Positions 23,607 through 42,466 of a stretch of DNA of 64,000 nucleotides are shown here, piece by piece (position 1 is the stretch's first letter; each line of letters opens with the position of its first letter). Under the pieces are notes generated by a model, which did not search any database, was not told the DNA's origin, and saw only the letters and a program-made list of their open reading frames with translations. This DNA comes from Patescibacteria group bacterium (GTDB lineage Bacteria > Patescibacteriota > Minisyncoccia > Portnoybacterales > GWB1-42-6): the NCBI GenBank assembly GCA_022709865.1, contig JAKLIA010000001.1:210740-274739 (forward strand), written 5' to 3'. Position numbers and translations under genes: made by a program.

Positions 23607-25211
23607 ATGAAGAAGAAAAAAAGAATATTATTAATAATGCCTTCTTTCTGGGATCCGATCTGCCCGCCACAGGGCATCGTTTCTTTGAGGTCATATATAG
23701 AGAAGCTGGGATACGAGGTTTTTATCAGAGACTTTAACACAGACCCTCGGCTGTTTGATCTGCAAAGAAAATATTTTGAGCTTGGCTTAAAATTATTTCC
23801 TCATTGGAAGTTCTTAAATATTTTTAGGAACGGTCCCAGGTATTTTGCCCGGCATCAATTAGCCTGGTTTTTTGGGCGGCAATTGGGCACAAAATATGAA
23901 AAACTAGTGGGGCTAATTTTGAATTTTGACGGCAAAAGCAAATGCACCAAAGGGATGATCAAGCGCTTTGATTCTATCGTTGCCGAAGCCTTTAAGCTAA
24001 CCGAAGCAAAAACAGCGGAATTAGTAGGCCAGATAAAACCCGACATAATCGGCTGCACCATGCTGGAGAGCACTTTCCCCACGGCGTTGGCTATTTTAAA
24101 AACAGCGAAAAAAAATAAACCAAAAATTAAAACTTTACTTGGCGGGCCGGGGCCATTAATGGGTGATAAGATAGAGCATGGAAATCTGCAAAGAATTTTG
24201 GATAAGTGCCCTTGGATTGATACGATTATTTGCGGAGAAGGGGAAATCTTGTTCGAATATTATCTGAAAAAATCTTTCGGCAATAAAAAGATTATAGGGA
24301 TAGAGGATTTGAAAAATATAAAAAAAGCGGCTAGCGTTATGGATCTGCTAGTTGATATTAACAAATTACCAGAATCGAATTTTGAAGGCTTAACGATAAA
24401 AAGATATCTTTGGCTTTCTAGCTTTACTTCTAGGGGTTGTCCGTTCAGATGCGCTTTTTGCTTTGAAAACTCTTTTTGGAAAAGATTTAGGATGAAGAAC
24501 ATTAAAAAAGTGTTGAAAGAATTCAATCATTTATCCGATTCGTACCAAAATAATAAGTTTTATTTGTCGGATTCTTTAGCTAATCCCATAATGAATGACC
24601 TAGCTTTTGGCTTAAAGAATGGCGGCACAAGGTATGAATACGATACATATATCCGAATAACCGATGATTGTTTGGATAATAAAATAGTGAAACGGTGGGC
24701 GGATAGCGGTTTGGCTAGAGCGAGAATCGGCGTTGAATCAACCTCTCCGCGCGTTTTAAAGTTAATGAATAAGAAGATAACTACAGAACAAATAGGAAAA
24801 AGTTTGAATAATTTTTCCCGGAATGGTATTTATACTTCAACTTTATGGATTGCCGGTTTTCCCGGGGAGACAAAGAAAAATTTTTTAGAGTCGGTCGCTT
24901 TTTTGAAAAAAAATTGCCAGAATATTTATCAAGCTGATATCTGGGAGTTTGTTTGTTCTCCAGAGGGATTTTCTATTGCGGAGGAAGGTATCAACCATCA
25001 GGCAAAACTAGCTTATCCTGAAGAATTAGGTAGTATTCTCCCTTTGCGATATTTTGAGCTAGAAGGCTACATTTCTCCGGCGGAACGTTTTGAAAGGATT
25101 AGTCTTTTTGAAAAAGCAAGAATAAGGGCTGGCATCCCAAATCCGTATTCGATCAGCGATTTGTTGCGGGCAAAAGACCGCTGGATTAAGCTTGGCCATA
25201 AACATAATTAA
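23607..25211 (+). CDS. B12-binding radical SAM protein (class B radical SAM), paralog 1
   Basis: N-terminal cobalamin-binding domain (IIGCTMLESTFPTALAIL...LLGGPGP) and a radical SAM CxxxCxxC motif (SRGCPFRCAFC). Nearly identical over about 900 nt to 40772-42385. Confidence 0.75.
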   Translation: MKKKKRILLIMPSFWDPICPPQGIVSLRSYIEKLGYEVFIRDFNTDPRLFDLQRKYFELGLKLFPHWKFLNIFRNGPRYFARHQLAWFFGRQLGTKYEKLVGLILNFDGKSKCTKGMIKRFDSIVAEAFKLTEAKTAELVGQIKPDIIGCTMLESTFPTALAILKTAKKNKPKIKTLLGGPGPLMGDKIEHGNLQRILDKCPWIDTIICGEGEILFEYYLKKSFGNKKIIGIEDLKNIKKAASVMDLLVDINKLPESNFEGLTIKRYLWLSSFTSRGCPFRCAFCFENSFWKRFRMKNIKKVLKEFNHLSDSYQNNKFYLSDSLANPIMNDLAFGLKNGGTRYEYDTYIRITDDCLDNKIVKRWADSGLARARIGVESTSPRVLKLMNKKITTEQIGKSLNNFSRNGIYTSTLWIAGFPGETKKNFLESVAFLKKNCQNIYQADIWEFVCSPEGFSIAEEGINHQAKLAYPEELGSILPLRYFELEGYISPAERFERISLFEKARIRAGIPNPYSISDLLRAKDRWIKLGHKHN

Positions 25212-25216
25212 ATATT

Positions 25217-25654
25217 ATGAAAATAGAAAAGATAAAAAAAGCGAGAAAAATTGAATTTGATAAAGTGGCTGTTGGTGACGAAGTCTTTTTTGAAAAGAAG
25301 ATTGGCAGAAAAGAAATGAAAAAATTCGAAGAACTAACGGGCAATTCAACCCCTTTGCATACCGACCTGAAATTTGCCAAGCAAAAAGGTTTTCGCGGGA
25401 TAGTGGTTTATGGGCTTTTGGCCGCAGCTTATTTTTCGACTCTTTTTGGCATGTTATTGCCCGGAGAAAAGTGTTTGTGTCTAAGCCATAATTTAATTTA
25501 TAAAAAGCCCCTAATTGAAGGAGAAACAATAAAAGTGATGGGGAGGGTTACCCATAAGATCAGCAGCGCCCAGATATTGATCATGAAAACAAGGATTTTT
25601 AATAAAAAAGGGATATTGATCATAGACGGAGAAGCAAAAGTAAGGTTTATTTAA
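25217..25654 (+). CDS. MaoC-like (R)-specific hydratase/dehydratase (hotdog fold)
   Basis: GNSTPLHTDLKFAKQKGFRGIVVYGLL matches the MaoC dehydratase signature. 145 aa. Confidence 0.7.
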   Translation: MKIEKIKKARKIEFDKVAVGDEVFFEKKIGRKEMKKFEELTGNSTPLHTDLKFAKQKGFRGIVVYGLLAAAYFSTLFGMLLPGEKCLCLSHNLIYKKPLIEGETIKVMGRVTHKISSAQILIMKTRIFNKKGILIIDGEAKVRFI

Positions 25655-25667
25655 TGATTTTATTTTT

Positions 25668-40760: not shown

Positions 40761-40771
40761 AAGAGATGTGA

Positions 40772-42385
40772 TTGGATAATTTTCCCGATATGAAAAAGAA
40801 GAGAGTGCTATTAATAATGCCTCCCTTTTTTTACCCGATCTGCCCGCCACAGGGCATCGTTTCTTTGAGGTCATATATAGAGAAGCTGGGATACGAGGTT
40901 TTTATCAGAGACTTTAACACAGACCCTCGGCTGTTTGATTTGCAAAGAAAGTATTTTGAGCTTGGCTTAAAATTATTTCCTCATTGGAAGTTCTTAAATA
41001 TTTTTAGGAACGGTCCCAGGTATTTTGCCCGGCATCAATTAGCCTGGTTTTTTGGGCGGCAATTGGGCAAAAAATATGAAAAACTAGTGGGGTTAATTTT
41101 GAATTTTGACGGCAAAAGCAAATGCACCAAAGGGATGATCAAGCGCTTTGATTCTATCGTTGCCGAAGCCTTTAAGCTAACCGAAGCAAAAACAGCAGAA
41201 TTAGTAGGCCAGATTAAACCCGACATAATCGGCTGCACTATGCTGGAGGTTACTTTCCCCATGGCGCTGGCTATTTTAAAAACAGCGAAAAAAAATAAAC
41301 CAAAAATTAAGGCTTTGTTAGGCGGGCCATTAACTAATAATGAGCCGGGACAGAGGGGTATGCAAAGAATTTTGGATAAGTGTCCTTGGATCGATACGAT
41401 TATTTGCGGAGAAGGGGAAATCTTGTTCGAATATTATCTGAAAAAATCTTTTGGCAATAAAAAGATCATAGGGATAGATGATTTAAAAAATGCAAAAAAA
41501 GCAGCCAGCGTTATGGATCTGCTAGTTGATATTAACAAATTGCCAGAATCTAATTTTGAAGGTCTAGAGATAGAAAAATATTCTATGCTTTCATTCGCTA
41601 CCTCTAGAGGCTGTCCGTTCAACTGCGCTTTTTGTTCTGAAGGATCTTTTTGGAAAAGATTTAGAGTTAAAAACATTGAAAAAGTGCTAAAAGAGCTTAG
41701 CCACTTATCCGATTTATACAAAAATAATAAGTTCTATTTGTCTGAATCTTTGGCTAACCCCATAATTAATGTTTTAGCGTTGGGCTTGAAGAACGGTGGC
41801 GCAAAATATAAATATGACACCCACATTCGAATAACGAATGATTGTTTAAATAATAAAACAGTAAAACTCTGGGCAGAAAGCGGGTTGGTTAGGGCTAGAA
41901 TCGGTGTTGAATCAGCCTCTTCCCGGGTTCTAAAGTTGATGAACAAGCAAATCACTGCCGAGCAAGCAAAAAAAGCTTTAAGCAATCTGGCTCGAAACGG
42001 TATTTATACTTCAACTTTATGGATTGCTGGTTTTCCCGGAGAGACAAAGAAAAACTTTTTAGAGTCGGTCGCTTTTTTGAAAAAAAATTGCCAGAATATT
42101 TATTCCGCTGATATCCATGAGTATGTTTATTCTTTGAAATCGCTTTCTTTGGCTGGTAACGGAATTAATTGCCGGGCAAAACCAGTTTACCCTGAAGAAT
42201 TGGTTAAAGCTCTTCCTTTGCAATATTTTGAGCCGGAAAGTTCTCTCTCTGCGCGAGAGCGCTTTAGAAGGATCAGTCTCTTTGAAAAAGCGAGAATAAA
42301 AGCCGGTATTCCAAATTCGTCTTTGATTAGCGATGCATCACGGGCAAAAGACCGCTGGATTAAGTTAGGGCATAAACTTAATTAA
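40772..42385 (+). CDS. B12-binding radical SAM protein, paralog 2
   Basis: Same architecture as 23607-25211, with radical SAM motif SRGCPFNCAFC. The first about 900 nt are about 95-99% identical to paralog 1 and the remainder is mosaic. Confidence 0.75.
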   Translation: MDNFPDMKKKRVLLIMPPFFYPICPPQGIVSLRSYIEKLGYEVFIRDFNTDPRLFDLQRKYFELGLKLFPHWKFLNIFRNGPRYFARHQLAWFFGRQLGKKYEKLVGLILNFDGKSKCTKGMIKRFDSIVAEAFKLTEAKTAELVGQIKPDIIGCTMLEVTFPMALAILKTAKKNKPKIKALLGGPLTNNEPGQRGMQRILDKCPWIDTIICGEGEILFEYYLKKSFGNKKIIGIDDLKNAKKAASVMDLLVDINKLPESNFEGLEIEKYSMLSFATSRGCPFNCAFCSEGSFWKRFRVKNIEKVLKELSHLSDLYKNNKFYLSESLANPIINVLALGLKNGGAKYKYDTHIRITNDCLNNKTVKLWAESGLVRARIGVESASSRVLKLMNKQITAEQAKKALSNLARNGIYTSTLWIAGFPGETKKNFLESVAFLKKNCQNIYSADIHEYVYSLKSLSLAGNGINCRAKPVYPEELVKALPLQYFEPESSLSARERFRRISLFEKARIKAGIPNSSLISDASRAKDRWIKLGHKLN

Positions 42386-42422
42386 ATATTTGCAGCAGGT
42401 GATTGTGGGTTCAATCAATTAT

Positions 42423-42466
42423 TTTCTTCACAAAAAAAGGCAGGCGTGATACGCTTGTTTTTAGTT
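42423..42466 (+). repeat. 44-bp direct repeat, copy 2, with terminator hairpin
   Basis: Exact copy of 40717-40760, located 38 nt after the paralog-2 stop. Confidence 0.6.

Follow-up and report, generated by a model that had tools for sequence, protein, structure and literature searches.

Apparent gene conversion between two B12-domain radical SAM paralogs and a hairpin-bounded cassette in a surface-glycan island of Candidatus Portnoybacteria

Introduction

The surface-glycan island of an uncultured bacterium contains two genes, RS1 and RS2, that encode B12-domain radical S-adenosylmethionine (SAM) proteins and are almost identical in some segments and strongly diverged in others. The question raised by this locus is whether the two genes are a recent duplication that brackets a mobile unit, or an older pair that became similar secondarily. 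The analyzed window is a stretch of 64,000 nt (positions 210,740 to 274,739 of contig JAKLIA010000001.1, assembly GCA_022709865.1). A preliminary description of it presented the genes as recently duplicated, as subject to ongoing gene conversion, and as the borders of a 15.5-kb module of nonulosonic-acid (NulO) genes and a giant secreted protein gene.

The host of the window is a member of Candidatus Portnoybacteria (Patescibacteria, also known as the candidate phyla radiation, CPR), since deposited proteins identical to those of the window belong, by their NCBI names, to Candidatus Portnoybacteria bacterium, including proteins on an NCBI contig of 376,744 bp.

Results

Mosaic identity of RS1 and RS2

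Both proteins carry the Pfam B12-binding domain (PF02310; 37.6 and 39.3 bits, cut-off 32.1) and the Radical_SAM domain (PF04055; 66-72 bits, cut-off 29.5), above the curated cut-offs, and are 82.5% identical in amino acid (aa) sequence over the whole length. The list of open reading frames (ORFs) starts RS2 at TTG 40772, while it is the ATG at 40790 that matches the start of RS1 in the alignment, yielding a protein of 531 aa. In the AlphaFold2 (AF2) model of RS1 (pLDDT 94.8) a Rossmann domain occupies approximately residues 1-215, the radical SAM barrel residues 266-450, and a C-terminal domain follows; the Rossmann domain holds a helical insert of about 95 residues (47-143).

The global alignment of the two genes, scored in 60-nt windows, consists of blocks rather than of uniform divergence, as was already noticed in the preliminary description. 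In particular, 461 of 480 nucleotides are identical (96%) between RS1 23641-24120 and RS2 40821-41300; the adjacent 60 nt of RS1 (24121-24180) form a divergent patch with 36 identical positions and a 6-nt deletion in RS2, and in the following segment (RS1 24181-24360) the identity is again high (166/180, 92%). Beyond 24360 the identity is 70-80%, with the exception of an island at RS1 24841-24900, the GFPGETKKNFLESVAFLKKNCQNIY region, where 57 of 60 nucleotides coincide, in agreement with the near-identity noticed there earlier. The estimate of 95-99% identity over the first 900 nt or so holds in part: it is 96% over 480 nt, but the near-identity stops some 750 nt from the start of the gene, and the initial 35 nt or so are divergent. 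A frameshift was considered as the cause of the divergent patch and rejected, as the patch combines the 6-nt deletion with dense substitutions.

Projected on the protein, the first tract (tract A in Table 1) corresponds to the N-terminal strands of the Rossmann/B12 domain together with its helical insert, and the unconverted patch is the GG-loop that follows strand 175-180. Altogether the putatively converted residues are approximately 17-170 and 195-255, that is, essentially the cofactor domain and the linker, plus 412-432 in the barrel. Conversion skips the GG-loop patch and the entire substrate-side half.

Gene conversion and the age of the pair

The time scale is set by the orthologue of RS1 from a sister species (P0001 on contig L002; 91% aa and about 90% nucleotide identity, identical upstream synteny). 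In the three-way alignment of RS1, RS2 and P0001 two site patterns were considered, namely, RS1 and RS2 agreeing against the orthologue, and RS1 and the orthologue agreeing against RS2. Along the alignment these patterns fall into 83 runs, compared with 109 or more in each of 100,000 permutations, so that none of the permutations is as clustered as the observed alignment; the longest conversion-type run comprises 23 sites. In the 64-nt patch the dominant pattern is agreement of RS1 with the orthologue, RS2 being different.

The rate of synonymous substitution follows the same blocks. Calculated by the Nei-Gojobori procedure per 30 codons, dS between RS1 and RS2 spans the range from 0 to 2.0: it is approximately 0-0.15 in 23700-24060 and 1.2-2.0 in 24516-24786 and around 25056, and the proportion of synonymous differences (pS) reaches 0.70 in the 3' half, near saturation in places. 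In the converted partition dS is 0.16 between RS1 and RS2 and 0.62 between RS1 and the orthologue; in the unconverted partition these values are 1.05 and 0.55, respectively. The neighbor-joining trees differ accordingly: the converted partition yields (RS1,RS2),P0001, and the unconverted one (RS1,P0001),RS2, with RS2 on a long branch.

Gene conversion from RS1 into RS2, over about 700 nt at the 5' end and in the 60-nt island, is thus supported by the sequence data. RS1 is the likely donor, because the converted segments of RS2 nest in the RS1 clade, and what remains specific to RS2 deviates from the consensus of the family. Moreover, the duplication is not recent, because dS in the unconverted partition is about twice the divergence of the species, and RS2 there branches outside RS1 and its orthologue; the description of the genes as recently duplicated has therefore to be abandoned. 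RS1 and RS2 appear to be an old pair, or RS2 a close xenolog, partly overwritten since speciation.

In one segment of RS1, 24080-24120, there is a cluster of sites where RS2 coincides with the sister-species orthologue and RS1 differs. RS1 thus seems to carry a small derived patch, and RS2 would retain the older RS1 state there.

The 44-bp hairpin and the RS2 cassette

The 3' end of the locus is arranged as the giant protein gene, the hairpin T1, RS2, the hairpin T2, and three genes of a 2-oxoacid:ferredoxin oxidoreductase (OFOR). As had been noted before, T1 and T2 are exact 44-bp direct repeats flanking only RS2; no third copy with at most three mismatches is present in the window, and the number expected by chance is 0. 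On its 5' side the repeat continues for another 6 nt or so, interrupted by a 2-nt indel, and the homology beyond these 44-50 bp is at the chance level. T has the appearance of a terminator, an A-tract, a stem of 7-12 bp and a T-tract forming a hairpin (dG of -18.8 kcal/mol for the 76-nt segment, z = -3.05). No Rfam family reached its gathering score, the T2 match to STnc390 being sub-threshold (23.7 bits vs 50). In all 97 fetched loci T occurs at the RS2/OFOR site only, and an exact search for its 27-nt core in metagenome contigs gave no match, the collection evidently being without samples that hold this organism.

The sister species provides the state of this site without RS2. Two of its contigs, L095 and L096, carry the orthologue of OFOR alpha (P0145, 91% aa identity), and comparison by blastn and alignment shows that L095 8143-8221 corresponds to window 40682-40761 (the 3'-terminal codons of the giant protein gene, and T1), while L095 8170-10804 corresponds to window 42417-45047 (T2 and the OFOR genes). 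There is no match to window 40762-42416 in L095 or L096. Hence the sister-species site consists of the sequence upstream of T1, a single T, and the sequence downstream of T2, with the OFOR genes directly behind T, and constitutes an exact empty site. Because of this single-T site, RS2 with one T (1,706 bp) is an indel bounded by T, consistent with the earlier suggestion of a discrete gene and terminator cassette, or a recombination scar.

The single T of the sister species is identical to T1 and T2 in 44 of 44 positions, and the flanking DNA is diverged by approximately 12% between the species (0.877^44 is about 0.003). The identity of T1 and T2 is thus a weak mark of a recent event and does not date the indel, because T itself is conserved.

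Recombination within or at T would have created the indel: either the sister lineage lost the segment by loop-out between T1 and T2, or the lineage of the window gained it by insertion. The loop-out fits the split of RS1 and RS2 predating speciation. The insertion would have proceeded at T via a Campbell-type circle bearing T, or via flank-mediated replacement from a relative. In the window species, an empty-site junction would read ...AAGATGATTATTC-T-GTAGGAAAATAGG..., and a circle junction ...CAATCAATTATT-T-AAGAGATGTGATTGG....

Known classes of mobile cassettes were considered as well. No recombinase domain was identified in the ORFs scanned across 1-53.5 kb, and no GTTRRRY core of integron attC sites is present, the 3' junctions of T reading GTTAAGA and GTTGTAG. 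RS2 is the sole gene of the cassette, with no terminal inverted repeats and no transposase, and the 44-bp duplication far exceeds known target-site duplications.

The same empty site would be observed if RS2 were a xenolog from a more distant Portnoybacteria relative, inserted at T after the species split and converted by RS1 in its 5' half later, so that the sister species never had it. The cleanness of the site, the lack of an RS2 orthologue among 313 homologues, the identity of T1 and T2 with sharp boundaries, and the frequency of cassette replacement in this island (a NulO core of 27-37% identity and a wholly different island in a third genome, see below) agree with such an origin. However, unconverted RS2 is still closest to RS1 and P0001, with dS just about twice the species divergence, so the donor would have to be a close relative; moreover, no known sequence qualifies as the donor, genes of recombinases or mobile elements are absent from the vicinity, and the identity of T is equally explained by constraint. 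We consider this origin possible, but somewhat doubtful.

Variable blocks of the locus

If RS1 and RS2 bracketed a mobile module, the interval 25217-40696 should vary as a unit between related assemblies. This is not what the comparison shows: in the sister species the module occurs in the absence of RS2, none of the assemblies found carries an inversion, or a deletion between the two RS genes, and the blocks that do vary end elsewhere, being the NulO core (31289-35423), the cassette of the giant protein, and the RS2 cassette. RS1 itself appears to be a working part of the module rather than its border, because its homologues reside in a recurrent cassette with genes for an acyl carrier protein (ACP), a MaoC-type dehydratase and a phosphopantetheinyl transferase (PPTase), usually with FkbH.

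The genes of the NulO core are 27-37% identical (aa) between the window and the sister species (L095 3325-6592), while the genes flanking it, FkbH, ACP and acyltransferase on one side and CMP-transferase on the other, are 82-96% identical. The core thus seems to be a non-orthologous cassette swap between the species, and, as its genes are non-orthologous, the species probably make different NulO sugars. The OFOR genes are 85-94% identical.

The cassette of the ArsR regulator, the 174-aa protein and the giant protein precedes the OFOR genes in the window and follows them in the sister species (L095 10927-15503; 43-63% aa identity), where a beta-helix replaces the beta-propeller of the giant protein. 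At the window-type site (L095 7470-8157) the sister species retains a deletion remnant of 95 aa, in which the final codons of the giant gene are fused to the N-terminal part of the 174-aa gene.

Direct repeats of about 470 nt with 96% identity, 17.2 kb apart, could mechanically serve as recombination arms that delete, amplify or move the 15.5-kb NulO/surface-protein module as a unit, and some metagenome contigs indeed break at the repeat (L084 starts at 40820). We find this very unlikely here, as both long assemblies carry the full arrangement, no contig was found in which the gene preceding RS1 is joined to the OFOR genes, in the sister species the module is present and RS2 is lacking, the observed variation uses other breakpoints, and RS1 is a functional member of the module.

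Selection on RS2

In the divergent parts dN/dS between RS1 and RS2 is 0.05-0.2 per 30 codons, and omega of RS2 in the unconverted parts is 0.17-0.27. At the protein level RS2 evolves about three times faster than RS1 and deviates at 6 of the 83 columns conserved in at least 90% of 73 homologues, the family median being 1. The deviations are W15F (polymorphic), the deletion of G180, D322E, Y348H, P513S and Y514S. Independent assemblies carry an uninterrupted RS2 ORF, which retains the cluster cysteines. RS2 therefore looks like a gene under altered or relaxed constraint, still subject to purifying selection and no pseudogene.

These values bear on a further alternative, a recent duplication of the gene and terminator cassette, after which the 3' half of RS2 diverged fast under positive or relaxed selection. 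The synonymous divergence of the 3' half (pS up to 0.70; dS 1.05 vs 0.55) is beyond what selection on the protein can produce, dN/dS is 0.05-0.27 and not above 1, and the discordance of the trees is a signature of conversion. The 96-100% identity of the first 480 nt or so and the raised dN on the RS2 branch would be expected under a recent duplication too, but such a history is hardly credible.

A polymorphic tract boundary

The 157-kb contig Ga0116241_10000228 from the Joint Genome Institute (JGI) collection (loci L083 and L088) covers window 18361-53532 with unchanged gene order. Over 21,044 aligned bases it differs from the window by seven mismatches, and by one 1-nt indel elsewhere. All seven mismatches are located at the 5' boundary of tract A and switch RS2 to the RS1 state, in agreement with protein P0125. 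A further extension of the conversion tract thus looks polymorphic between populations, and conversion looks ongoing, because the tract boundary differs between otherwise identical assemblies. Together with the mosaic at synonymous sites and the discordant segment trees, this bears out the earlier suggestion of ongoing gene conversion.

A chimera produced by a de Bruijn graph is unlikely, because the copies have just 14-15 nt in common at the switch point. Other assemblies break at the RS repeat; a partial third-party annotation (TPA) protein, for instance, begins inside RS2. An origin of the 12-nt polymorphism, or of the RS1-like sequence in the 5' half of RS2, from mis-threading or polishing across the repeat, at whose very edge the polymorphism lies and where several assemblies break, is scarcely plausible, since two independent contigs, the NCBI 376-kb one (with identical RS1, RS2 and OFOR proteins) and the JGI 157-kb one, agree on the mosaic, RS2-specific differences are scattered through the tract, and the sequence common at the switch point is below assembler k-mer sizes.

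Contigs of four assemblies and of both sister species break at approximately 27866-27972, between the end of the 417-aa gene and the start of the PPTase gene. In particular, L001 stops at 27933, and L089 and two contigs resembling it run from 27940 to about 40644; in the sister species the last position of L002 corresponds to 27866, and the first position of L095 to 27970. No repeats of at least 10 nt were identified at the recurrent breakpoints (27.9 kb and 40.64 kb), no alternative neighbor of the PPTase gene was found among the contigs, and the identity of the sister contig does not rise towards the break.

Protein family and fold

Both proteins are paralogs in an uncharacterized family with class B radical SAM architecture. 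The cysteines of the CxxxCxxC motif (C278, C282, C285) are invariant in 74 homologues, the motif being CPFRCAFC in RS1 and CPFNCAFC in RS2. None of the NCBIfam equivalogs (ApyD, BchE, PhpK, HpnR, BzaD and others) comes close, the best scores being 111-118 bits vs cut-offs of 480-750. The closest solved folds to the RS1 model are MgmA, TsrM, OxsB, AprD4, TokK and MiaB, and a phmmer search against sequences of the Protein Data Bank matches the family to TokK and CysS; the identity to any solved structure is 12-17%, with template modeling (TM) scores of 0.45-0.6.

A protein identical to RS1 is found in JGI contigs. A degenerate search of metagenome contigs for the family motif yielded four loci, one of them new (L094). 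In the search of genome contigs with the family alignment, the matches listed were only radical SAM genes of about 25% identity, sharing the generic SRGCPF motif, with no close genomes among them. Exact-sequence look-ups of RS2 gave no match, start-codon differences being the cause. Three cluster members (P0121, P0122 and P0124) were rejected as unrelated short peptides. The third radical SAM gene, said to end at 570, is a real ORF that encodes a radical SAM fragment, yet one of another family, with 29% identity to RS1 over 94 aa.

Gene neighborhood and possible chemistry

The context of RS1 was compared with those of two homologues at 63-73% aa identity (P0005 and P0008) and of the third member in L094. 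In L085/L086 a PPTase gene lies upstream of the RS gene, which is followed by ACP, MaoC, and then Epimerase_2 and CMP-transferase genes. In L087 the order is an FkbH fusion, RS, an 80-aa ORF, MaoC, a 365-aa gene, PPTase, and a NeuC/NeuB fusion; in L094 the RS gene is accompanied by FkbH and nucleoside-diphosphate-sugar genes. In the window RS1 is followed by MaoC, WecB, the 417-aa gene, PPTase, FkbH, ACP, an N-acyltransferase, and NeuB onward. Across phyla, therefore, the RS1 family appears to adjoin a small ACP, a MaoC-type dehydratase, a PPTase and usually FkbH, beside NulO genes. The 417-aa gene was rejected as a conserved member of this cassette, as it shows no similarity to the 337-aa and 365-aa genes of L085 and L087.

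FkbH scores 312 bits with TIGR01686 (cut-off 146.65) and is accompanied by a dedicated ACP and a PPTase. The 77-aa ACP had no Pfam match in precomputed annotations; it has the serine motif WDSINHL and is 38% identical to the ACP of L085 (E = 5e-13). The gene content is that of a NulO locus: NeuC scores 374 bits with TIGR03568 (cut-off 235.9), CTP_transf_3 81 bits, and NeuB 253 bits with PF03102 and 388 bits with TIGR03569, slightly below the cut-off of 399.65. The predicted product is a neuraminic (Neu), legionaminic (Leg) or pseudaminic (Pse) acid derivative.

FkbH is known to make glyceryl-ACP. Our best guess is that RS1 would act on an ACP-bound acyl group derived from glyceryl, performing a radical step on the tethered three-carbon unit; cobalamin-dependent C-methylation seems most likely, with a diol-type radical reaction as an alternative. 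The modified acyl unit would then be N-linked to the nonulosonic acid, and RS2 would catalyze a variant of this step or a second one. The C-methylation or epimerization of sugars proposed in the preliminary description is plausible; judging from the conserved neighbors, an acyl substituent tethered to the ACP is the better candidate.

N-glyceroyl and di-O-methylglyceroyl nonulosonic acids (Pse) have been described, with the responsible genes largely unidentified (PMC5378307), and in C. jejuni a gene with an FkbH domain (cj1302) is located in the flagellar glycan island (PMC7099621).

Other features of the island

The island occupies window 1-45.4 kb on one strand only and encodes glycosyltransferases (GT) of the GT-C/PMT_2-type, GT2, GT4 and GT9 families, many methyltransferases, GDP-mannose dehydratase and an aminotransferase, an ATP-binding cassette (ABC) exporter, and a 504-aa protein weakly similar to BFO_1060. 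The conserved core flanking it begins at a minus-strand Bac_transf gene (45498). Another Portnoybacteria genome (L090; GCA_028688325.1, 1-5746) has the core synteny of Bac_transf, MurB, S30AE, PvlArgDC and deoxyhypusine synthase in common with the window. Beside this core L090 has an unrelated glycan locus on the opposite strand, which includes two other B12-radical SAM genes and lacks OFOR genes. The island is a hypervariable hotspot, because a wholly different glycan locus lies beside the same core.

Two small helix-turn-helix (HTH) regulators are encoded inside the island, an HTH_17/excisionase-type one (19998-20252) and an ArsR-type one (36136-36402), and both are kept in the sister species. 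In the GT4 gene (18744-19961) the AAA at 18958-18960 is AA in a JGI contig of 3300010429, which splits the gene into ORFs of 75 aa and 305 aa, apparently a loss-of-function allele segregating between otherwise identical populations. In both sister species a complete OFOR operon lies at the edge of the island, right behind the T hairpin; it is pure speculation that OFOR might supply low-potential electrons to the several radical SAM enzymes of the island.

Table 1. Coordinates of the features of the RS1/RS2 locus in the window
Feature	Coordinates	Strand	Basis and remarks
RS1, resident B12-domain radical SAM gene (534 aa)	23607..25211	+	Pfam PF02310, PF04055; probable conversion donor
Acyl-tailoring genes accompanying RS1, whole block	25217..31284	+	Pfam/NCBIfam; same set around RS homologues in L085/L086, L087, L094
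MaoC dehydratase	25217-25654	+	Pfam/NCBIfam
WecB	25668-26729	+	Pfam/NCBIfam
417-aa protein, no assigned family	26719-27972	+	Pfam/NCBIfam scan
PPTase	27976-28356	+	PF01648
FkbH	28362-30176	+	TIGR01686
ACP, 77 aa	30178-30411	+	ORF and homology to the ACP adjoining the RS gene in L085
AAC(3)-like N-acyltransferase	30415-31284	+	Pfam/NCBIfam
Nonulosonic-acid core (NeuB, NeuC-type epimerase, two short-chain dehydrogenases/reductases) and CMP-NulO synthetase	31289..36114	+	Pfam/NCBIfam; core is 31289-35423
ArsR regulator, 174-aa membrane protein, 1172-aa secreted LTD/beta-propeller protein	36136..40696	+	Pfam; signal-peptide-like N-terminus
T1, 44-bp terminator-like hairpin	40717..40760	+	20 nt 3' of the giant protein gene stop
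RS2 cassette, 1,706 bp: 5' leader, RS2, 3' spacer, one T	40761..42466	+	blastn/alignment of L095/L096 vs window; missing at the homologous sister-species site
RS2, orphan fast-evolving paralog (531 aa)	40790..42385	+	Pfam; probable conversion recipient
Polymorphic 5' tract boundary	40823..40834	+	Window RS2-type CCTCCCTTTTTTTACCC (PPFFYP) vs JGI Ga0116241_10000228 RS1-type CCTTCTTTCTGGGATCC (PSFWDP)
Putative conversion tract A in RS2	40835..41300	+	Equivalent to RS1 23655-24120, 96-100% identical; dS about 0-0.15; dominant site pattern RS1=RS2 vs orthologue
RS2-specific unconverted patch, 64 nt, GG-loop of Rossmann domain	41301..41364	+	6-nt deletion; RS2 LLGGPLTNNEPGQRG vs RS1 LLGGPGPLMGDKIEHGN; dN 0.375
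Putative conversion tract B in RS2	41365..41544	+	Equivalent to RS1 24191-24370, about 92% identical
Putative conversion island in radical SAM barrel (GFPGETKKNFLESVAFLKKNCQNIY)	42015..42074	+	57/60 identical to RS1 24841-24900
T2, identical 44-bp hairpin	42423..42466	+	37 nt past the RS2 stop, 22 nt before the OFOR alpha start
OFOR alpha, beta, gamma-delta	42489..45047	+	Pfam; directly 3' of T2

Discussion

The history that we consider most consistent with these data is as follows. RS2 would be an older duplicate of RS1, or a homologue acquired from a relative, that split from RS1 before the divergence of the sister species. Homologous conversion of the RecA type, with RS1 as the donor, would have repeatedly overwritten RS2 after speciation, sparing the 64-nt loop patch and the 3' substrate-side half. 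As a whole, an old pair with conversion from RS1 to RS2, an RS2 cassette bounded by T, and RS1 as a member of an acyl-tailoring module, this interpretation has in our estimate a probability of about 70%.

Several observations weigh against it. The changes of RS2 at near-invariant residues (G180 deleted, D322E, Y348H, P513S, Y514S) may reflect a drift towards loss of function. The empty site is compatible with both directions, insertion here or deletion in the sister species, and the identity of T1 and T2 is no evidence for dating, T being 100% conserved across species. The polymorphism of the tract boundary comes from two metagenome assemblies and not from reads, so that an artefact of consensus polishing is conceivable. 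The enzymatic role of RS1 is deduced from gene neighbors only, one of the four contexts, that of L085, showed no FkbH within 10 kb, and the structural neighbors include non-methylating enzymes (the diol dehydratase AprD4 and OxsB).

If the favored history is correct, the locus would be an example of domain-limited concerted evolution in CPR bacteria, with the cofactor half homogenized, the substrate half diverging under selection, and one event still segregating. Moreover, surface-glycan diversification would here proceed cassette by cassette, through an RS2 indel at a conserved putative terminator, exchange of the NulO core genes for non-orthologous ones, and turnover of the cassette with the surface protein. 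The uncharacterized B12-type radical SAM family accompanying FkbH, ACP and MaoC is also a candidate for missing enzymology, the genes for N-acyl NulO substituents being largely unknown. A bolder reading is that RS, ACP, MaoC and PPTase, usually with FkbH, constitute an undescribed radical SAM step for an N-acyl NulO substituent, that RS2 is neofunctionalized as a second tailoring enzyme, with a cofactor domain homogenized by conversion and its own cofactor-proximal loop and substrate half, and that the T-bounded unit is a cassette passing from strain to strain by recombination at the conserved hairpin, so that CPR bacteria would shuffle glycan-tailoring genes without a recombinase; we regard this combination as unlikely.

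The processes involved are all known, namely, ectopic gene conversion, recombination at short direct repeats, and cassette replacement in glycan loci; no new mechanism is needed. Ectopic conversion and concerted evolution are familiar from bacterial paralogs such as the tuf genes, rRNA operons and surface-antigen families. RS1 and RS2 resemble these cases in the near-identity tracts within diverged paralogs, the discordant segment trees, the patchiness of the tracts and the asymmetry of donor and recipient. They differ in that the homogenized part coincides with the cofactor domain, and in that the host is a CPR bacterium with a reduced genome; a search of a paper library found no paper that joins gene conversion, Patescibacteria and paralogs.

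Integron attC cassettes are a formal analogue of the RS2 cassette, both being promoterless single-gene units between two identical structured repeats and having an empty counterpart with one repeat in a relative. Unlike attC, T is a plain terminator-like hairpin that has no GTTRRRY core, and no integrase was found in the ORFs scanned. The cassette also differs from a transposon insertion, its 44-bp repeat being much longer than target duplications.

At the protein level, RS1 and RS2 share with the cobalamin-dependent class B radical SAM enzymes (the methylases TokK, CysS, TsrM and MgmA, and OxsB) an N-terminal Rossmann/B12-type domain followed by a CxxxCxxC barrel. They differ in the helical insert, the low identity and the distance of all equivalogs from their cut-offs. 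AprD4, a B12-independent look-alike with the same architecture and without cobalamin, is an equally good fold match to RS1.

Finally, the arrangement of FkbH, ACP and PPTase genes next to NeuB, NeuC and CMP-transferase genes is similar to that of the systems linking FkbH and glyceryl-ACP to N-glyceroyl NulO (cj1302 of C. jejuni, Pse5Am7Gra of T. forsythia), and the switching of Pse and Leg loci between T. forsythia strains (PMC5378307) parallels the swap of the NulO core observed here. The window differs from the C. jejuni and T. forsythia systems by the addition of a B12-type radical SAM enzyme and a MaoC dehydratase.

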